The position numbers were made by a program, and so were the translations under genes. Under the pieces are notes generated by a model. That model worked only from the letters and a program-made list of their open reading frames with translations. It was not told where the DNA came from and made no database searches. A stretch of 59,428 nucleotides of DNA, filler included. It is 5 parts of 5 records of this genome, joined end to end, with 100 filler letters (N's around TTAATTAATTAA, not from the genome) between each part and the next. Parts side by side here need not be neighbours in the genome. Positions count along the whole stretch, not along the records: positions 40,590 to 45,957 come from SRR20825019_2441; 4 more parts are not named here. One strand, written 5' to 3'. Of the stretch, positions 20,789 through 48,893 are shown piece after piece; the stretch's first letter is position 1; each line of letters starts with the position of its first letter.

Positions 20789-20888
20789 NNNNNNNNNNNN
20801 NNNNNNNNNNNNNNNNNNNNNNNNNNNNNNNNTTAATTAATTAANNNNNNNNNNNNNNNNNNNNNNNNNNNNNNNNNNNNNNNNNNNN
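20789..20888. other. Artificial contig spacer
   Basis: 44 N + TTAATTAATTAA + 44 N; abrupt GC change across it. Confidence 0.98.
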
Positions 20889-25940: not shown

Positions 25941-26040
25941 NNNNNNNNNNNNNNNNNNNNNNNNNNNNNNNNNNNNNNNNNNNNTTAATTAATTAANNNN
26001 NNNNNNNNNNNNNNNNNNNNNNNNNNNNNNNNNNNNNNNN
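25941..26040. other. Artificial contig spacer
   Basis: 44 N + TTAATTAATTAA + 44 N. Confidence 0.98.
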
Positions 26041-40489: not shown

Positions 40490-40589
40490 NNNNNNNNNNN
40501 NNNNNNNNNNNNNNNNNNNNNNNNNNNNNNNNNTTAATTAATTAANNNNNNNNNNNNNNNNNNNNNNNNNNNNNNNNNNNNNNNNNNNN
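40490..40589. other. Artificial contig spacer
   Basis: 44 N + TTAATTAATTAA + 44 N. Confidence 0.98.
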
Positions 40590-41861
40590 CTGAAACTGGC
40601 GATGGAGGACTGGGCGGCGCCCATCATCGTCACTACCAATGTGCAATTGTTCGAAAGCCTGTTTGCGTCGCGGACATCGCGGGCGCGCAAGCTGCACAAT
40701 ATCGCCGGAAGCATCATCATTCTGGATGAGGCGCAGACCTTGCCGCGGCACTATCTCTTTCCGGTCATGCGGATGCTGGAGGCGCTGGCCGAACAGTATG
40801 GCTGCACCATCATCCTGTGCACGGCGACACAGCCGGCGCTTGGCGTGCGTCCGGATTTCCCGCAAGGGCTGGCGCTTGCAGGCCGCGAATTGGCGCCCGA
40901 TCCGCATGGGCTGGCGGGCAGGCTGGCGCGCGCGACCATCCGCCATGGCGGGACGATGGACAATGACGCGCTGGTTGCGGCGCTGGACGAAAACGAACAG
41001 ACGCTGGTGATTGTCAACAGTCGCCGCCATGCGCTCGAACTCTTCAGGGACGCCGAGGCGGCGCGGCTTTCCGGCCTCGTTCATCTTTCGACGCGGCTCT
41101 GCGCGGCGCACCGGCGTGAGATCCTTGGCCGTGTGAAGGCGCGGCTGAAGGCGGGCGGCACATGCCGGGTGATCGCAACCTCTCTGGTGGAGGCGGGTGT
41201 CGATATCGATTTCCCGCTTGTCTTGCGCGCCGAGGCCGGGCTGGACCAGATCGTGCAGGCGGCCGGGCGCTGCAACCGCGAGGGTGGGCGTAGGCGTGAA
41301 GAGAGCGTCGTCACGGTCTTCGATCCACCGGATTACGCACCGCCAACCGAGATCAAGGGCATGATCGGCGATATGAAACGGATGATCGACAGGCATGACG
41401 ATCTTCTGTCGCTGCCGGCGATTGAGGACTATTTCCGCGAGGTCTACTGGCGAAAGGGCGAAAAAGGGCTTGACGGCAAGGGCATTCTCGACCGGTTCAA
41501 GGTCACCCTTTCGGGCACGGATTTCGCCTATCGGTCGGTGGCGGAGGATTTCCGCATGATCGAGAGCGGCATGGAACCGGTGGTCATCCCTTATGACGAC
41601 AAGGCGCGTCAGGCTGTCGCGGATCTCGGCGTCGAGAACATTTCCTCTGGTCGACTCGCCAGAGTGTTGCAATCTTACATTGTTCAGGTGCCGCCGAAGG
41701 CGCGGGCGCTGCTTGTGACCAATGGTCATGCGCGTTTCGAGCGGCCGGACCTGCGTGGAGATCAGTTCGTGGTGCTGAAAACCGCATCGCTCTACGGGCC
41801 TGAACTGGGGCTGTTGTGGGAGGATGGGGGCTATCTGGCGGCGGAGAACATGATCTGTTGA
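40590..41861 (+). CDS. cas3: Type I-C Cas3 helicase, 5' truncated
   Basis: EDW.APIIVTTNVQLFESLF, LDEAQ, CTATQP, ATSLVEAGVDIDF and QAAGRCNREG. Confidence 0.95.
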   Translation: MKLAMEDWAAPIIVTTNVQLFESLFASRTSRARKLHNIAGSIIILDEAQTLPRHYLFPVMRMLEALAEQYGCTIILCTATQPALGVRPDFPQGLALAGRELAPDPHGLAGRLARATIRHGGTMDNDALVAALDENEQTLVIVNSRRHALELFRDAEAARLSGLVHLSTRLCAAHRREILGRVKARLKAGGTCRVIATSLVEAGVDIDFPLVLRAEAGLDQIVQAAGRCNREGGRRREESVVTVFDPPDYAPPTEIKGMIGDMKRMIDRHDDLLSLPAIEDYFREVYWRKGEKGLDGKGILDRFKVTLSGTDFAYRSVAEDFRMIESGMEPVVIPYDDKARQAVADLGVENISSGRLARVLQSYIVQVPPKARALLVTNGHARFERPDLRGDQFVVLKTASLYGPELGLLWEDGGYLAAENMIC

Positions 41862-41886
41862 CATAAAAATACTAGGAAGATATTGA
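41858..41886 (+). promoter_or_regulatory. Sigma70-type promoter overlapping the cas3 stop; also the protospacer-like target of the mini-array
   Basis: TTGACA (41858-41863)-N17-TATTGA (41881-41886); minus strand reads TTC + CTAGTATTTTTATGTCA. Confidence 0.75.
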
Positions 41887-41935
41887 AGGCGAAGTTATTG
41901 CCCCCATCTTTAGTGCACGAGCACAGGAGGTGGTA

Positions 41936-42031
41936 ATGCGACCGTTGAAACCCGAAGATTTCTCTTGGCAAGATTGGTTGCCAATTCTGTTGGCGTTTGT
42001 GGTCAAGTTTTTGATCGCGCTCTTGGGGTAA
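41936..42031 (+). CDS. Unannotated 31-aa hydrophobic peptide MRPLKPEDFSWQDWLPILLAFVVKFLIALLG, candidate CRISPR-repressed toxin
   Basis: SD AGGAGGT at 41925-41931, ATG 41936, TAA 42029-42031; single TM-like C-terminal helix. Confidence 0.7.
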   Translation: MRPLKPEDFSWQDWLPILLAFVVKFLIALLG

Positions 42032-42036
42032 TCAAT

Positions 42037-42119
42037 GTCGTCCAGTGCCTGCTGGATGTGGATCGAAACCTAGTGTTTTTTTGTCATGAGTATGTCCCTT
42101 CCTTCTTGGGAGGGGCATA
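42037..42119 (+). CRISPR. Single-spacer degenerate mini-CRISPR (crRNA-like regulatory RNA, CreA/CreR-like)
   Basis: R1 42037-42069 GTCGTCCAGTGCCTGCTGGATGTGGATCGAAAC (I-C-type ends, 7-bp stem); 24-nt spacer 42070-42093; degenerate hairpin R2 GTCCCTTCC-TTCTT-GGGAGGGGC from 42094. Confidence 0.85.
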
Positions 42120-42149
42120 GTCATTTCGATGTTGGAAGGGGAGGGGCGA

Positions 42150-42848
42150 TTGGCTTATGGAATTAGACTGAAGGTCTGGGGCGACTATGCGTGTTTTACG
42201 CGGCCCGAGATGAAGGTCGAGCGCGTTTCCTATGACGTGATGACGCCATCGGCGGCGCGCGGCATCCTGGAGGCGATCCACTGGAAGCCGGCGATCCGCT
42301 GGGTCATCGACGCCGTTCACGTGCTGGAGCCGATCCGGTTTCAGTCGATCCGCCGCAACGAGGTTGGCCACAAGGCGCCGGCCGGCAAGATCAAATCGGC
42401 GATGAAGCGCGGTGATCTGGAGGGGCTCAACCTCCTGGTCGACGAGGATCGCCAGCAGCGCGCGGCAACCGTGCTGGTAAGACCCGCCTATGTCATCGAC
42501 GCCCATTTCGAAATGACGGAAAAGGCAGGGCCGGACGACAATGAGGGCAAGCATCTCGACACGTTCAGCCGCCGTGCCCGCAAGGGGCAATGCTTCAACC
42601 AGCCCTGCCTGGGGACGCGCGAGTTCTCCGCCGCGTTTGAACTGATCGAACCGGATGATCTGATACCGCAAGCCGCCGCCGAACATCGTACCGCCAGCCT
42701 CGGTTTCGGCGCGGCGCGCGATCTGGGCTTCATGCTCTATGATATCGATCACGGTGCGGAAGGCCGCCCTTCGCTGTTCTTTCGGGCCTTGCTGAAAGAC
42801 GGCGTGGTCAAGGTGCCGCCGGCGAATTCTCCGGAGGTCAGGCGATGA
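42150..42848 (+). CDS. cas5: Type I-C Cas5 (Cas5d)
   Basis: WGDYACFTRPEMKVERVSYDVMTPSAARGILEAIHWKP; TTG start after GGAGGGG SD. Confidence 0.95.
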   Translation: MAYGIRLKVWGDYACFTRPEMKVERVSYDVMTPSAARGILEAIHWKPAIRWVIDAVHVLEPIRFQSIRRNEVGHKAPAGKIKSAMKRGDLEGLNLLVDEDRQQRAATVLVRPAYVIDAHFEMTEKAGPDDNEGKHLDTFSRRARKGQCFNQPCLGTREFSAAFELIEPDDLIPQAAAEHRTASLGFGAARDLGFMLYDIDHGAEGRPSLFFRALLKDGVVKVPPANSPEVRR

Positions 42849-44713
42849 CCATTCTCGCTTCGCTTGTGAATGCCTACGACCGGCTGTCGGACGCGCCGCC
42901 GATCGGCTTTTCATCGGAAAAGATCGGTTTCGTCATCGCGTTGAATGAAGATGGCAGCGTTGCCAGTGTCAGCGATCTCAGGGAAGGCGAGGGCAAAAGG
43001 ATGCGCGCCCGGCAGATGCTGGTGCCGCAACCGGTGAAGCGGACAGCGGGCGTCGCGCCCAATTTCCTCTGGGACAAGACATCTTATGTTCTGGGCGTGA
43101 CCGCCGGCGAGGGCAAGCGCACGGCCGATGAGCACGCGGCTTTTGTCGAACGGCATCTGACCGACCTTGGCGGCACTGATGATGCCGGGCTCAGAGCATT
43201 GCTGTCCTTTCTGCAATCCTGGACGCCCGAACGTTTTGGCGAGCAGGGCTGGCCGGAGGACGTGAAGGACCAGAACGTCATTTTTGCGCTGGAGAGCGAT
43301 CGGCTCGCCCATATCTATCTCCATGACCGGCCGGCGGCAAAGGCGCTGTGGGCTCGCCTCTCGACAGCGGGCGATGCCGGTGACCAGATTTGCCTGGTAA
43401 CGGGCGATAAAATGCCGCCTGCCCGGCTTCATCCCTCAATCAAGGGAGTGTGGGGCGCGCAATCTTCCGGCGCGGCACTCGTCTCCTTCAATCTCGACGC
43501 CTTCACCTCCTACGGCCATGAACAGGGCGCCAATGCCCCCGTTTCAGAAATCGCCGCCTTCAAATACACCACGGTCCTCAACCGCTTTCTCGAACGCGAC
43601 AGCGGCCACCGGGTGCAGATCGGCGATACCTCCACGGTGTTCTGGGCTGATGCGCGTGACATGAAACGGGCGGAGGAGGCGGAAGGATGGGCGGCCTATA
43701 TGCTTGATGCGTCACCGACCTCCGACGATGACAAGGCCGGCAACCGGCAAATCGAAATCAAACTCAAGCGTCTGGCCAAAGGTGAACATCTAAGCGTGAT
43801 CGAACCAGAGCTTGCCAAGGACGTTCGCTTTTATGTGCTTGCCCTGTCTCCCAACGCAGCACGCCTATCCGTGCGGTTTTACTTCAAGGATAGTTTTGGT
43901 GTGGTCGCCGATAACTACGCTGACTATCTGCGCGATATCGCTTTGGAGCCCTGGCCGGAGGGTCGAATTCGGCCTTCTATTTCCCGCGCTGTTCTGCGAA
44001 CAGCACCGGCGAGAATTGACAGGACCGGAAAGGTCACTTTTGACCGGGAGCAGATTTCCGCTTTGCTTTCTGGGGAGTTGCTCAGAGCCATTTTGACGGG
44101 AGGGCGGTTTCCGGCTGCTCTTCTTGGTCTGCTGCTGATGCGCGTTCGTAGCGATCACGTTCTAGACAGTGTGCGAATTGCTCTGATCAAAGCTGTCATC
44201 ATTCGTATGATGCGGCTTGAAAAACGTCTGCCGCCCGGTTTCGACGGCGATCCCAACAAGGAGTATCTGATGCGTTCCGACCCGGACGATCCCAATCCCG
44301 CCCGCCGTGCCGGGCGCCTGTTTGCCGTGATCGAACGAGCGCAGCTTACCGCGCTCGGCGATGACATCAATGCTACCGTCAAGGACAAGTTTCTGAGTTC
44401 GGCTGCCGCCACGCCCGGTCAGGTCTTTCCTGGCATCCTGAAGAATGCGCAAAATCATATCAAGCGCCTTCGCAACGGTCATTCCGATGCGAAATGGATA
44501 AAGGACAGTCGTCACGCCAAGAAAATGGCGGCGATACTCGACAGGGATATCGGCAAGCTTGTCGCGAGTTTCAATGACAGTTTTCCCGAGCAACATTCGA
44601 ACGAAGAGCAAGGGCTTTTTTTCATCGGCTATTATCAGGAGCGCTTCGGCAAGGGTTCCAGCGATGAACCGACGGACGAGATCGCCGCTTTCGAAACCGA
44701 TACGCAGGAGTGA
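42845..44713 (+). CDS. cas8c: Type I-C Cas8c/Csd1
   Basis: PNFLWDKTSYVLG, CLVTG...ARLHPSIKGV, LVSFN..AF.SYG..QG.NAPVS and LSPNAARLSVRF. Confidence 0.95.
   Translation: MTILASLVNAYDRLSDAPPIGFSSEKIGFVIALNEDGSVASVSDLREGEGKRMRARQMLVPQPVKRTAGVAPNFLWDKTSYVLGVTAGEGKRTADEHAAFVERHLTDLGGTDDAGLRALLSFLQSWTPERFGEQGWPEDVKDQNVIFALESDRLAHIYLHDRPAAKALWARLSTAGDAGDQICLVTGDKMPPARLHPSIKGVWGAQSSGAALVSFNLDAFTSYGHEQGANAPVSEIAAFKYTTVLNRFLERDSGHRVQIGDTSTVFWADARDMKRAEEAEGWAAYMLDASPTSDDDKAGNRQIEIKLKRLAKGEHLSVIEPELAKDVRFYVLALSPNAARLSVRFYFKDSFGVVADNYADYLRDIALEPWPEGRIRPSISRAVLRTAPARIDRTGKVTFDREQISALLSGELLRAILTGGRFPAALLGLLLMRVRSDHVLDSVRIALIKAVIIRMMRLEKRLPPGFDGDPNKEYLMRSDPDDPNPARRAGRLFAVIERAQLTALGDDINATVKDKFLSSAAATPGQVFPGILKNAQNHIKRLRNGHSDAKWIKDSRHAKKMAAILDRDIGKLVASFNDSFPEQHSNEEQGLFFIGYYQERFGKGSSDEPTDEIAAFETDTQE
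44270..44713 (+). CDS. cas11: Cas11c small subunit, internal in-frame start within cas8c
   Basis: AAGGAG at 44258-44263 followed by in-frame ATG 44270; GRLFAVIE.AQ and F.IGYYQ motifs. Confidence 0.7.
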   Translation: MRSDPDDPNPARRAGRLFAVIERAQLTALGDDINATVKDKFLSSAAATPGQVFPGILKNAQNHIKRLRNGHSDAKWIKDSRHAKKMAAILDRDIGKLVASFNDSFPEQHSNEEQGLFFIGYYQERFGKGSSDEPTDEIAAFETDTQE

Positions 44714-44718
44714 GAAAA

Positions 44719-45594
44719 ATGGACCCTATCCAAGGCCGATATGACTTCGTCTACCTTTTCGATATCGTCAACGGCAACCCGAACGGCGACCCGGATAACG
44801 GCAACATGCCCCGTGTCGAGATCAACAGCCAGAAAGGGCTTGTGACGGATGTTTGCCTGAAGCGCAAGATCCGAAACTATGTGGATCTGGTCAAGCAGCG
44901 GGAACCGCCTTACGCCATTTACATGCAGGAAAAGGCGGTCCTGAATAATCAAAACCGGCTTGCCTATGAGGCGCTTGATATAAAACCGGAAACAAAAAAA
45001 CTACCGAAAGACGAACAGCAGGCTCGCGATATCACGGCTTGGATGTGCCGCAATTTTTACGACGTCCGTACCTTTGGTGCGGTGATGACCACAGAAGTGA
45101 ATTCCGGGCAGGTTCGCGGCCCCGTTCAACTGGGGTTTTCGCAGTCGATTGATCCTATTTTGCCACAGGAAATCACGATTACCCGTTCTTCCGTTACCAA
45201 TGAGCGTGACGCCGAAAAAGAACGGACCATGGGGCGGAAATATATCATTCCCTACGGTCTCTATCGCTGCCACGGTTTCATCTCCGCCAGTCTTGCAGGT
45301 GACAGCAAAAAGGGAACCGGTTTTGGTCAGGATGATCTCGATCTGCTCTTTGATGCGCTGATAAACATGTTCGAGAATGACCGTTCGGCCGCTCGAATGG
45401 AAATGAATGCACAGTCGCTCATAGTCTTTAAGCACAGCAATGCACTGGGTAATGCTCCGGCACAGAAGCTTTTTAAGCGGGTGAAGGTCGAAAAGAGACC
45501 CGAGGTGAAGGTTGCTAGTTCTTTCTCCGACTACATCGTCGAGATCGACCGCGACAATCTGCCGGACGGTGTCGAGATCATCGAGAAGCTCTGA
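44719..45594 (+). CDS. cas7: Type I-C Cas7/Csd2
   Basis: NGNPNGDPDNGNMPR, TDVCLKRKIRNYV and DVRTFGAVM. Confidence 0.95.
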   Translation: MDPIQGRYDFVYLFDIVNGNPNGDPDNGNMPRVEINSQKGLVTDVCLKRKIRNYVDLVKQREPPYAIYMQEKAVLNNQNRLAYEALDIKPETKKLPKDEQQARDITAWMCRNFYDVRTFGAVMTTEVNSGQVRGPVQLGFSQSIDPILPQEITITRSSVTNERDAEKERTMGRKYIIPYGLYRCHGFISASLAGDSKKGTGFGQDDLDLLFDALINMFENDRSAARMEMNAQSLIVFKHSNALGNAPAQKLFKRVKVEKRPEVKVASSFSDYIVEIDRDNLPDGVEIIEKL

Positions 45595-45597
45595 GCC

Positions 45598-45957
45598 ATG
45601 GCGGGGGCGGTGGGAGCGGGAGCGGACATGGGAGCAGGCGAGCCCATGCCCATTTCAGCGCTTCAGCATGCGGTCTACTGCCTGAGGCAGGCCGCCCTCA
45701 TCCATCTGGAGCGGGTCTGGGTGGATAACCGGTTTACGGCGGAGGGCGATGTGCTGCACGCGGTGGCAGACAAGGGCGGCAAGCGCAAGGCGAGGGGGCT
45801 TCGCCGGGTGATGGCGTTGCCGGTGGCCAGCCGGCGGCTCAATATTTCGGGCATTGCCGATATGGTGGAGTTTCAACTCTCCCCCGATGGCCGCGAAACC
45901 GCCTTTCCGGTGGAATACAAACGCGGTAAGGCCAAGCTTCACCGCGCCGACGAGGTG
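45598..45957 (+). CDS. cas4: Cas4, 3' truncated
   Basis: ISALQH..YC.RQAALIHLE.VW.DN and ADMVEF...PVEYKRGK. Confidence 0.92.
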
Positions 45958-46057
45958 NNNNNNNNNNNNNNNNNNNNNNNNNNNNNNNNNNNNNNNNNNN
46001 NTTAATTAATTAANNNNNNNNNNNNNNNNNNNNNNNNNNNNNNNNNNNNNNNNNNNN
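45958..46057. other. Artificial contig spacer
   Basis: 44 N + TTAATTAATTAA + 44 N. Confidence 0.98.
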
Positions 46058-46104
46058 CCCTTCTCCCCTTGTGGGAGAAGGTGCCCGCAGGGCGGATGAG
46101 GGGT
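46058..46104. repeat. Rhizobiales-type intergenic palindromic (REP/RIME-like) element
   Basis: CCTTCTCCC-CTTGT-GGGAGAAGG...GGCGGATGAGGGG at the contig end. Confidence 0.65.
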
Positions 46105-46108
46105 GTCT

Positions 46109-47146
46109 TTATGCAATCGGCGGATAAGCGTGTTCCCCGCCTTGCCAGTCGCGCACCGTAAAACACCCGTCCGACCCGGTGATCGACACCGCGCCGATAT
46201 CGGCCTTGCCATATCCGCCTGGAATATCGAGCACATAGACCGGCTGGCACAGGCCCGAAATCCGCCCGCGCAGCGCCTGCACGAGCCTTTGCCCTGCCTC
46301 GACACTCACGCGGAAATGCCCTGTGCCCGGCGCCAGGTCGGGGTGGTGCAGATAATAGGGCTTGATCCGGTTTTCGACGAAGCCGCGCATCAGGCTGGCA
46401 AGCGTCTCGACATCGTCATTGACGCCCTTGAGCAGAACGCTCTGGCTGATCAGCGCGATATTGCCTGCGAGCAATCGGTCAAACCCAGCCTTCGCCGCCG
46501 CCGTCAGTTCGCGCGGATGATTGGCATGCACCGCCAGATAGGTTGTCTTGCCGCTCGCGGTCAGTGCAGCCACCATCTCGTCATCAATCCGCTCCGGTTC
46601 CACCACCGGCACCCGCGTGTGAAAGCGGACGATTTTGACATGCTCGATGCCCGCCAGCCGCTCCATCAGGTCACGCAACCGGCGCGGCGACAACACCAGC
46701 GGATCACCTCCGGTCAGGATCACTTCCCAGATTTCGTGATGCGCCGCGATATAGCCAATGGCCGCATCCAGCTCTGCCGGACTCAGCGTCCCCAGCCCCT
46801 GCGGCCCCACCATTTCGCGTCGAAAGCAGAACCGGCAATAGACCGGGCACACATGCACGGCCTTGAGCAAGACCCGGTCGGGATAGCGATGCACGATCCC
46901 TTCCAGCGGCGAATGGGCAAGATCACCAATCGGATCGGCCCGCTCCTCCGGCATCGTGGTCAACTCGTCGGCCGTGGGCACGAACTGCCGCGCAATCGGA
47001 TCGTCCGCATCGTTCGGATCGATCAGGTCCAGCACCGCCGGAGTAATGCCGATGGCATATTTTTCGCCAACCTTGTCGAGCGCGGCGTCCGGCGCAACAA
47101 GCCTGGCGGCCTTCAGGTCCGTGACTGATTTGAGCGCCCCGCTCAT
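46109..47146 (-). CDS. epmB: Lysine 2,3-aminomutase-like radical SAM protein for EF-P modification
   Basis: HRYPDRVLL..VHVCPVYCRFCFRR and TGGDPL; adjacent to epmA and efp. Confidence 0.88.
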   Translation of the reverse strand: MSGALKSVTDLKAARLVAPDAALDKVGEKYAIGITPAVLDLIDPNDADDPIARQFVPTADELTTMPEERADPIGDLAHSPLEGIVHRYPDRVLLKAVHVCPVYCRFCFRREMVGPQGLGTLSPAELDAAIGYIAAHHEIWEVILTGGDPLVLSPRRLRDLMERLAGIEHVKIVRFHTRVPVVEPERIDDEMVAALTASGKTTYLAVHANHPRELTAAAKAGFDRLLAGNIALISQSVLLKGVNDDVETLASLMRGFVENRIKPYYLHHPDLAPGTGHFRVSVEAGQRLVQALRGRISGLCQPVYVLDIPGGYGKADIGAVSITGSDGCFTVRDWQGGEHAYPPIA

Positions 47147-48192
47147 TCTGCCACCGGTGCCCACAGCACCGCCTCGATTCGCTGCGCGCCGGTGGCCAGC
47201 ATCACCAGCCGGTCAAAGCCCAGGGCAACCCCGCTGGCCTCGGGCATGAACGCAAGCGCGGCCAGGAAATCCTCCTCGATCGGATATCGCTCTCCATAGA
47301 GACGCTGCTTTTCGGCCATTTCCGCCTCGAACCGCGATCGCTGCTCAACGGCATCGGTCAATTCGCCAAAGCCATTGGCCAGCTCGACCCCGCACGCATA
47401 AACCTCGAAACGTTCCGACACCCGCGCATCCCCCGGCACCCGCCGCGCCAGCGCCGCCTCGCAGGCAGGATAACGGTCGAGCACCGTCACGCGCCCATTG
47501 CCCAGCTCCGGTTCAATCTTCTCCACCAGCACATGCGTAAACAGATAACTCCAGCGCCGATCCTCCGGCAAAGCCATGCCCACCCGCAGCACCTGCTCGG
47601 CCAGCGCCGCATCATCGGGCACCCCATCGCCATCCATGGTCGCCAACAGGTCGATGCCCGCAAAGCGCTCAAACGCCTCGGCCACACTGATCCGCTCCGC
47701 CTCGGCAAGCGGATCGCACACCCGGTCGCGAAATGTGAAGCCTGATATTCCCGTCACCTCTGCCGCCAGCCGAATGATCGCGAGTGTATCGGCAATGATC
47801 GCCTCATAGGGCGCGCCCGCCCGATACCATTCGAGCATGGTGAATTCGGGATGGTGTAGCGCGCTGCGCTCGCGATTGCGCCAGACATGCTGCAGGCTTG
47901 CAATCCTGGTCTCCCCGGCCGCCAGCAGCTTCTTCATGGTGAATTCGGGAGAGGTATGCAGATACATCGTCTGCCCCACCCCATCATTGCCGATCATCTG
48001 CGTGCCAAAGGCATGCAGATGCGTCTCGTTGCCGGGCGAGCGCTGCAGCCCCGGCGGATCGACAACCAGGAAGTCCCGTTCGGCCAGCCAGCCGCGCACT
48101 TTGGCCTCGATGCGCGACCGGGCCAGCAGCGCCGGCCGCCGGTCGGCATGGCGGTCGGGATGCCACCAGGGCGATGTCTGGAATTCCGTCAT
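47143..48192 (-). CDS. epmA: EF-P lysine aminoacylase
   Basis: [42 protein letters not shown] and GVALGFDRL. Confidence 0.93.
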
Positions 48193-48323
48193 TGAAGGGT
48201 TTCTTGCCGTCCGGTCTGGCGAAAGGGCGCGGAATAGGGTATCGGGCGCACCACATATGCATATTCCGGCGCCCGGACGGCCCTGCCTCTAGCCCGCGCC
48301 AACGATACGAACAAGGAAGAAAT

Positions 48324-48893
48324 ATGGTCAAGGTCATCGCCTCGTCGCTGCGCAAAGGCAATGTCGTCGAGCAGGACGGCAATCTGCACGTCGTGCTGAC
48401 GGCGGAAAACGTCCACCCCGGCAAGGGTAATTCGATCACCAACGTCAACATGCGCCGCATCACCGACGGCGTGAAGGTCGTTGGTCGCTGGCGCACCGTC
48501 GAAATGGTCGAAAAGGCCGACGTGGACGATCGCGAATACGACTATCTGTATTCCGATGGCGAGGGACACCACTTCATGGAGCCCCAGACCTATGAGCAGA
48601 TCACCGTCCCCGACGACGTGATTGGCGATCAAAAGGCCTATCTCTCCGATGGCATGAAGGTGCATCTGATGACCCATGAGGGCATCGCGCTCTCCATGGA
48701 GCTGCCGCAGCGCCTGACATTCGAAATCGTCGAGACCGAGCCCGTGGTGAAGGGGCAGACCGCCTCTTCCTCCTATAAGCCCGCCGTCCTCAACAATGGC
48801 CTGCGCGTCATGGTCCCGCCCCATATCGGCACCGGCACCCGCATCGTCATCCTCACCGAAGACAACACCTACGTCGAACGCGCGAAGGACTGA
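48324..48893 (+). CDS. efp: Elongation factor P
   Basis: PGKG loop and VKGQTA..SYKPA...G..V.VP; start reassigned to MVKVIAS. Confidence 0.95.

Follow-up and report, generated by a model that had tools for sequence, protein, structure and literature searches.

Do the small peptide gene, the repeat-derived guide and the Cascade genes that follow cas3 in a type I-C CRISPR-Cas locus answer to one and the same switch? The question is raised by a 59,428-nucleotide (nt) stretch of DNA, filler included (the window, whose positions are used throughout), which carries such a locus at positions 40590-45957, in a contig from SRR20825019_2441. A preliminary description had proposed that one promoter at the end of cas3 drives peptide, guide and Cascade genes in a single feedback loop. 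Based on the comparisons below, one Cascade-gated site probably controls the three together, and the loop is probably fed by two promoters, a local one and that of cas3, gated by this one operator. We lean, without great confidence, towards reading the locus as a CreTA/CRISIS-type, CRISPR-supervised peptide module inserted between cas3 and cas5c in a Hyphomicrobiales-like alphaproteobacterium, with gated feedback as proposed.

The module is ordered cas3, peptide open reading frame (ORF), a repeat-like unit (PsiR1) with its guide (PsiS) and hairpin, and cas5c. The sequence features named in the preliminary description were all confirmed, and those on which the argument turns are these:

41842 to 41878, − strand: guide target, with a TTC protospacer-adjacent motif (PAM) at 41878-41876 and the protospacer from 41875 downwards.
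41858 to 41886, + strand: predicted sigma-70-type promoter, TTGACA-N17-TATTGA, with the -35 box at 41858-41863 and the -10 box at 41881-41886.
41936 to 42031, + strand: ORF for a 31-amino-acid (aa) peptide, MRPLKPEDFSWQDWLPILLAFVVKFLIALLG, with its ATG at 41936, its stop codon at 42029-42031 and a strong ribosome-binding site, AGGAGG (41925-41930), 5 nt upstream.
42037 to 42069, + strand: repeat-like unit PsiR1, 33 nt, made up of GTCG, a 7-bp hairpin and an 11-nt 5' handle, TGGATCGAAAC, at 42059-42069.
42070 to 42090, + strand: spacer-like guide PsiS, 21 unpaired nt, from the guide match and the fold.
42091 to 42119, + strand: 3' hairpin of 12 bp (loop 42103-42107), a degenerate second repeat (PsiR2), from the fold; it is followed by GTCATTTCG.

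The guide agrees with its target at 15 of 18 positions. The only mismatches fall at positions 6, 12 and 18, the bases that stay unpaired in Cascade, and all 15 pairing positions are matched next to TTC, the type I-C PAM. The next best guide match on the contig reaches 12 of 18. Shuffling the 300 nt upstream 20,000 times gave TTC-flanked scores of 12 of 15 at most, versus the 15 observed. The -35 box and most of the promoter spacer fall within the matched part (41858-41875), and by our reading of the convention it is the non-template strand with which the guide pairs. Contigs from four DNA-type sequencing runs, compared with the stretch, show strain variants only. A related strain (run X3) has a T to C change at 41864, which is the non-pairing protospacer position 12; this is seen in a single contig and may be an error.

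Is this pairing peculiar to the window? We surveyed the cas3-cas5 gap in the 80 loci with the closest Cas5c, 77 of which have cas3 upstream. The gap is shorter than 100 nt in 47 of these, 100-199 nt in 4 and at least 200 nt in 26, and the long gaps mostly form three classes (two of the 26, L026 and L064, were left out of the class sorting). Class A is arranged as in the window: a small ORF comes first, a repeat unit next, and the two share the strand of the cas genes. It comprises L002, L005 (decayed), L042, L044, L049 and L073. A search of 401 genomes of one order with a profile of the class A peptides matched four genomes, one of them new (L086). A degenerate DNA pattern run on metagenomes returned 65 loci, of which two are real: L094, and L089, which encodes the same peptide as L073. 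Many of the remaining metagenome loci hold larger ORFs, which look like sensor-domain genes that encode VWIET by chance. In total, class A amounts to nine distinct loci, window included, and the eight others are alphaproteobacterial.

In seven of the nine loci, a gapless TTC-flanked match to the guide lies 52-70 nt upstream of the peptide ATG, with scores of 15, 15, 15, 14, 14, 13 and 11 out of 15. The match in L073 and L094 requires one extra guide base at position 6; these loci (and L089 with L073) show a 5-nt seed, a bulge at position 6 and then 7 (L073) or 11 (L094) matched bases, where the usual arrangement is a mismatch at 6. The guides differ from locus to locus and the targets change along with them, and this co-variation argues more strongly than anything else for a functional pairing. 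With the target lying on the predicted promoter, and the module and its co-varying pairs present in eight further loci, the part of the preliminary description that proposed a shared switch for peptide, guide and Cascade is supported by the comparison. A second TTC-PAM target upstream of cas3 was not found in the available DNA of eight loci.

The guide itself is framed by what we take to be a real repeat unit, because the handle and the GTCG end of PsiR1 equal the repeats of related arrays. PsiR1 shares its first 4 nt (GTCG) and its last 12 nt (GTGGATCGAAAC) exactly with CRISPR repeats in related loci (e.g., GTCGCCCCTCACACAGGGGCGTGGATCGAAAC), and TGGATCGAAAC is the 3' end of repeats in related arrays. 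PsiR1 occurs once in the window. Cas5c is expected to cut just before 42059. A guide RNA that begins there and ends in the hairpin loop would have a length of 45-49 nt. This fits the 48-50 nt given for type I-C CRISPR RNA (crRNA)-like RNAs (crlRNAs), which end in the 3' hairpin loop, in passages of a preprint on such loci (10.1101/2024.12.27.630466). The minimum free energy fold of 42032-42160 also pairs the guide handle with the region of the cas5 start codon. In L044, L049, L073, L086 and L094 (also L002 and L005), a long-range helix of 10-14 bp (GGCUCGCUCCC ... GGGAGCGAGCC) clamps the repeat unit, its 5' arm directly after the peptide stop and its 3' arm directly before the cas5 ribosome-binding site, and the window and L042 have a local 3' hairpin in its place. 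The helix may be a processing or insulating structure.

As to the peptide, a search of 1.84 billion representatives with a profile of six class A sequences found 17 short relatives (31-54 aa, E up to 0.001), and because these related short proteins exist we regard the ORF as a real gene. The family consensus is MRLPPxxDxEFWSxxxAIxxxGxVK, with W and K nearly invariant, and the window peptide is a divergent member. None of the 17 relatives bears a name, and the family has no match in Pfam, NCBIfam or PADLOC. A match of one relative's peptide to Vpu (E 0.42) was dismissed as meaningless. The window peptide has a polar N-terminal third followed by a hydrophobic, helix-like C-terminal part with one Lys (on the Kyte-Doolittle scale, residues 1-12 average -1.28 and residues 13-31 average +2.06). 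Its small size, its shape and its position within a CreTA-like module make it, by inference only, a candidate membrane-active toxin. Many family members carry a Pro-Pro codon pair. We set aside a reading as a proline- or rare-codon RNA toxin, given that the ORF is conserved as a protein and the window copy is without that pair. Two overlapping weak terminator-like hairpins lie within the ORF at 41965-41995 (7-bp stems with 3 G-C pairs and T-poor tails); a look by eye at the ORFs of the other loci saw no counterpart. In a contig of the related strain (run X3), a G is missing at 42025, in the last peptide codons, so that the ORF would extend into the repeat unit; this too is a single contig and a possible error.

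What, then, transcribes these elements? The -35 box TTGACA (41858-41863) overlaps the cas3 TGA (41859-41861) and the genes downstream are co-directional, just as the preliminary description had it. Sites with at least 9 of 12 matches to TTGACA-N16-18-TATAAT number two on the + strand of the contig, and 41858-41886 is one of them. Its -10 box lacks the final T, an absence that had been called common in Alphaproteobacteria; this agrees with passages of PMC7703639, according to which 30-43% of alphaproteobacterial promoters carry that T. Of the predicted -10 boxes of seven related loci, three have the T and four do not (L044 and L094 judged by eye). Promoter-like sites occur in the relatives at a fixed place: their -35 boxes precede the ATG by 56-61 nt, their spacers measure 17 nt (L044 and L094 again by eye), and they overlap or adjoin the PAM; in the window the target covers the promoter instead of abutting it. 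We also looked in the window for a promoter in the relatives' register, with a -35 box about 58 nt before the ATG, and found nothing convincing by scan or by eye.

Between the predicted promoter and cas5 there is a single site with 8 of 12 matches, TTGAAA-N18-CAAGAT at 41945-41974, inside the peptide ORF. A relaxed promoter scan of eight loci (all but L094) found no site after the repeat unit and none that recurs within the ORF, and in eight folded regions no hairpin with a U-tract was seen by eye between guide and cas5. In the window, GTCATTTCG after the PsiR2 hairpin contains 4 T in 8, which is below the U-tract rule, and the hairpin does not figure among the terminator-like structures; the claim that no U-tract follows it therefore holds. 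The end of the handle lies 38-53 nt past the peptide stop in the six loci with an intact ORF, and 46-56 nt from the cas5 start in six of the nine loci (80 nt in the window, 119 nt in L042 and 204 nt in L049). The distance of 46-56 nt leaves no room for a separate cas5 promoter. With neither promoter nor terminator after the repeat unit, cas5c should be transcribed through the repeat unit, and this most simply through the ORF.

It is the single promoter that is not supported. The terminator scan found none after cas3 in the window, and 47 of the 77 loci have less than 100 nt between cas3 and cas5; in the two loci with the most similar Cas3, the gap is 27 and 37 nt, including the ribosome-binding site. 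Short gaps and the lack of a terminator make read-through from cas3 a likely second source of cas5-cas7 mRNA. Since both the cas3 input and the local input would have to cross the Cascade-bound site, "one switch" survives where "one promoter" does not.

The predicted course of events is as follows. Guide-loaded Cascade would sit on the site at the end of cas3, where the partial match would leave Cas3 unrecruited for cleavage. Bound Cascade would block both initiation at the local promoter and polymerase arriving from cas3. For type I-E, passages of PMC4288209 describe a block of elongation by Cascade when the guide targets the non-template strand. Peptide gene, guide and cas5c are most likely on RNAs that pass this one site, because no terminator or promoter-like site other than the weak one in the ORF lies between them. 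If they are on one transcript, Cas5c would cut it at the two repeat hairpins and separate three RNAs. The outcome would be negative feedback on Cascade and guide, with the peptide, a candidate membrane toxin, kept low; if Cascade were lost or inhibited, then peptide, guide and Cascade mRNA would all rise together.

A further feature bears on how the peptide might be restrained:

41893 to 41935, + strand: predicted 5' leader with an anti-Shine-Dalgarno hairpin, CCCCCAUCUUU pairing with AGGAGGUGG (fold of -16.6 kcal/mol).

The Shine-Dalgarno region of the peptide is thus paired in the window (mean unpaired probability 0.15). Seven relatives have leaders of 21-26 nt with weaker pairing, i.e., the hairpin is not conserved. 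Rfam gave no match at E up to 1 in 41700-42300.

Several points weigh against gated feedback of this kind. The window promoter is a consensus match only, with a -10 box that fits at three of six positions and is without the final T, and it lies 20 nt farther from the peptide ATG than in the relatives. A stricter scan, with T required at the last -10 position, found no + strand promoter in 41000-48500. The tail of the PsiR2 hairpin, with 4 T in 8, is one short of the rule, and partial termination there is conceivable. The weak site at 41945-41974 could drive guide and cas5 independently. Finally, strict co-transcription would yield peptide mRNA along with all Cascade mRNA, which is awkward for a toxin unless its translation is restrained, and the anti-Shine-Dalgarno hairpin, a possible brake on translation, is not shared by the relatives.

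Three other wirings have to be weighed against these same data. If an internal promoter, in the ORF or in PsiR1, made guide and cas5-cas7 constitutively, as in classical toxin-antitoxin wiring, then Cascade would control the peptide only and there would be no autorepression through the local promoter. The site at 41945-41974 offers such a promoter, and a guide made independently of the promoter that it represses is the simpler antitoxin logic. However, the candidate has an 18-nt spacer and a poor -10 box, no site in the ORF recurs among the eight loci, five of which have none between the peptide ATG and cas5, and read-through from upstream would still cross the Cascade-bound site; we regard this wiring as unlikely. 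The local promoter could, conversely, be non-functional, so that the cas3 promoter is the origin of all RNA and guide-bearing Cascade is a pure roadblock that uncouples cas3 from the genes downstream. A cas3-cas5 distance below 100 nt in 47 of 77 loci, operonic by default, speaks for it, as do the missing terminator after the window cas3 and the guide on the non-template strand, an orientation in which type I-E Cascade stops elongation according to the same passages (PMC4288209). Against it stand the TTGACA, 17-nt spacer and TA-start -10 box, one of only two such sites on the contig, and the relatives, whose promoter-like sites adjoin the PAM and keep a constant distance to the peptide ATG. 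In the passages of 10.1101/2024.12.27.630466, moreover, all the tested type I-C units of this kind are located at mapped cargo promoters. A roadblock without a local promoter therefore seems quite improbable to us.

Peptide and guide might also be a two-gene unit of their own, closed off by the 42091-42119 hairpin, with cas5-cas7 expressed by leakage or from another signal and Cascade largely independent of the guide. The strong 12-bp hairpin, followed by 4 T in 8, would suit such an end, and in 12 related loci a small ORF and guide lie opposite to the cas5 strand and end at a hairpin shared with cas3, which indicates that such a unit can work alone. In the window, though, the hairpin is without a U-tract by the rule and the 30 nt between it and the TTG start of cas5c leave no room for a promoter. 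The guide abuts the cas5 ribosome-binding site in six of the nine loci, which would leave cas5 with no source of transcription. We give this arrangement very little weight. The gated feedback at the cas3 stop, with its two probable inputs, remains the reading that we carry forward.

The genes around the module set the frame for it. The window consists of small contigs; in the linkers that join them (20789-20888, 25941-26040, 40490-40589 and 45958-46057), TTAATTAATTAA stands between two runs of 44 N. The cas-bearing contig, 5,368 bases long, begins within cas3 and ends within cas4. The 5' end of cas3 and the 3' end of cas4 are missing because the assembly cuts genes at contig ends, not for any biological reason. 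The 5' end of cas3, its promoter, cas1, cas2 and the CRISPR array lie outside the contig and are hence not visible, and no CRISPR array was found within the window. All the flanking genes (the C-terminal part of cas3, cas5c, cas8c, cas7 and the 5' part of cas4, as identified with NCBIfam) are on the + strand:

40590 to 41861, + strand: cas3, C-terminal 423 codons and the TGA (41859-41861), with the 5' part lost at the contig start (cas3_core, E 4e-19).
42150 to 42848, + strand: cas5c, the type I-C pre-crRNA endonuclease, with a TTG start and GGAGG 5 nt upstream (Cas5c, E 2e-52).
42845 to 44713, + strand: cas8c (Csd1, E 1e-141).
44710 to 45594, + strand: cas7 (Csd2, E 3e-111).
45598 to 45957, + strand: cas4, first 120 codons, truncated by the contig end, with the N linker from 45958 (cas4, E 4e-13).

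The start of cas5c is most likely the TTG at 42150 and not the ATG at 42129, because the protein then begins M-A-Y-G and matches the M-x-Y-G start of its relatives. The closest relatives of this Cas5c are from Alphaproteobacteria, mostly Hyphomicrobiales, and the top one is from Martelella alba (87%).

The peptide module is not the only insert at this place. Class B comprises 12 loci (L014, L019, L020, L034, L047, L050, L051, L055, L056, L059, L070 and L079) in which the module lies opposite to the cas5 strand, a divergent layout that resembles the Haloarcula CreTA. A small ORF of about 26 aa, M[KR]RRRYALR...ELDLEP[IP], with no Pfam match, is present in 8 of the 12 and is directly followed by the repeat unit. 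A hairpin there is shared with the end of cas3, and ten of the 12 loci have a guide target next to TTC (11-15 of 15), 23-162 nt before cas5. Class C comprises six loci with an ORF of about 100 aa, intact in L037, L048 and L061 and broken in L012, L030 and L046. It has the motif YK[IV]xWPNGKIY[VI]GSD, which by eye recalls GIY-YIG nucleases; it had no Pfam match at E up to 0.1, and no repeat unit was noticed. Judging by these sequences, the alphaproteobacterial type I-C cas3-cas5c junction is a hot spot for at least three kinds of small insert, and two of the three kinds carry conserved, unnamed small ORFs with their own guides.

How does the module compare with known systems? Regulatory crRNA-like guides hold toxins, defence systems or cas genes in check. 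Hok, TisB and Fst are examples of the toxins of type I toxin-antitoxin systems. Such toxins are small hydrophobic membrane peptides (PMC12737573). The window peptide is like them in its approximately 30 residues, its one predicted hydrophobic helix and a leader predicted to sequester the ribosome-binding site, and has no sequence similarity to any family tested. Type I toxins arrest growth when overexpressed and are controlled by antisense RNA; in the window none is evident, no search for antisense RNA having been made, and the proposed control is transcriptional, by Cascade.

The closest precedent in placement is CRISIS, in which, as passages of the preprint describe, solitary repeat units (SRUs) of type I-C, placed between a cargo and cas5c, yield crRNA-like RNAs that repress the cargo promoter (10.1101/2024.12.27.630466). 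There too the cargo follows cas3 and the repeat unit directly precedes cas5c, an 11-nt 5' handle and a 3' hairpin bound an RNA of about 48 nt, and a partial PAM-proximal target with mismatches at 6 and 12 lies at the cargo promoter (the PAM is TTC or TTA in CRISIS and TTC in the window). In those passages the CRISIS cargo is a multi-domain defence system and the named examples are mostly from Neisseria; the window cargo is a single 31-aa hydrophobic peptide, and the hosts of this type are Alphaproteobacteria. The searched passages of the preprint do not discuss co-transcription, autorepression or a cargo promoter that feeds guide and Cascade genes. A small hydrophobic peptide as the cargo of a type I-C unit was not found in the full-text searches made; the CRISIS supplementary data, outside that scope, may list such loci.

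The precedent for the wiring is CreTA. Passages of 10.1101/2023.03.10.532045 describe how CreA of the Haloarcula hispanica type I-B system represses PcreT as well as Pcas8 and may dampen read-through from Pcas6. As proposed for the window, one guide and one target site serve toxin and Cascade genes, and attenuation of read-through from an upstream cas gene has been proposed. In Haloarcula, however, two divergent promoters flank the target, whereas in the window peptide, guide and Cascade genes stand in tandem on one strand behind one site. The CreTA antitoxin, a degenerate mini-CRISPR guide that partly matches the toxin promoter, has its counterpart in the window. The CreTA RNA toxin does not: it consists of a Shine-Dalgarno sequence, a mini-ORF of few (rare or proline) codons and a stabilising hairpin, and in Haloarcula it is described as a small RNA that sequesters a rare tRNA, whereas the window ORF has 31 codons and is conserved as a protein in 17 cluster representatives.

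The same passages describe CreR, Cas-regulating crRNA-like RNAs from a degenerate mini-CRISPR whose target is the promoter region ahead of the effector genes (10.1101/2023.03.10.532045). The likeness would lie in Cascade autorepression, the window target falling on the only good promoter-like site upstream of cas5c, with a predicted transcription start and likely read-through from cas3. CreR loci as described there have no toxin or cargo between target and guide, unlike the window. In the Acinetobacter type I-F CrePA, a KilA-N protein toxin, CreP, is silenced by a promoter-targeting guide, and mini-ORF RNA toxins, too, are described for type I-F. The window peptide shows no KilA-N likeness, having no Pfam match at E up to 1. 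Pseudomonas aeruginosa CreT is described, in passages of 10.64898/2026.06.02.729485, as a proline-codon toxin with a 15-nt mini-ORF, in contrast to the ORFs of the window family, which have 31-33 codons and are conserved as proteins. CrePA and Pseudomonas CreT share with the window the silencing of a product by a promoter-targeting guide; theirs is a growth-arresting one, and the window peptide is only a candidate toxin. The principle is thus already known, and the compact tandem layout and the peptide family are not described in the literature searched.

In its fullest form, which we hold only tentatively and think rather doubtful, a single polycistronic RNA would carry a membrane-toxin peptide, an antitoxin guide and the Cascade genes, and would be cut by its own Cas5c into a hairpin-capped toxin mRNA, the guide and the cas mRNA. 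One operator at the cas3 stop would then be addiction module, Cascade autoregulator and anti-CRISPR sensor at once, and the peptides, in 17 or more sequence clusters, would be a new, as yet unnamed alphaproteobacterial family of CRISPR-supervised toxins. If there is indeed one gated transcript, this would be the most compact version so far of the control of toxin and Cascade by a guide, and it would offer a simple test bed for the coupling of CRISPR effector level to a self-destruct signal when anti-CRISPRs strike.

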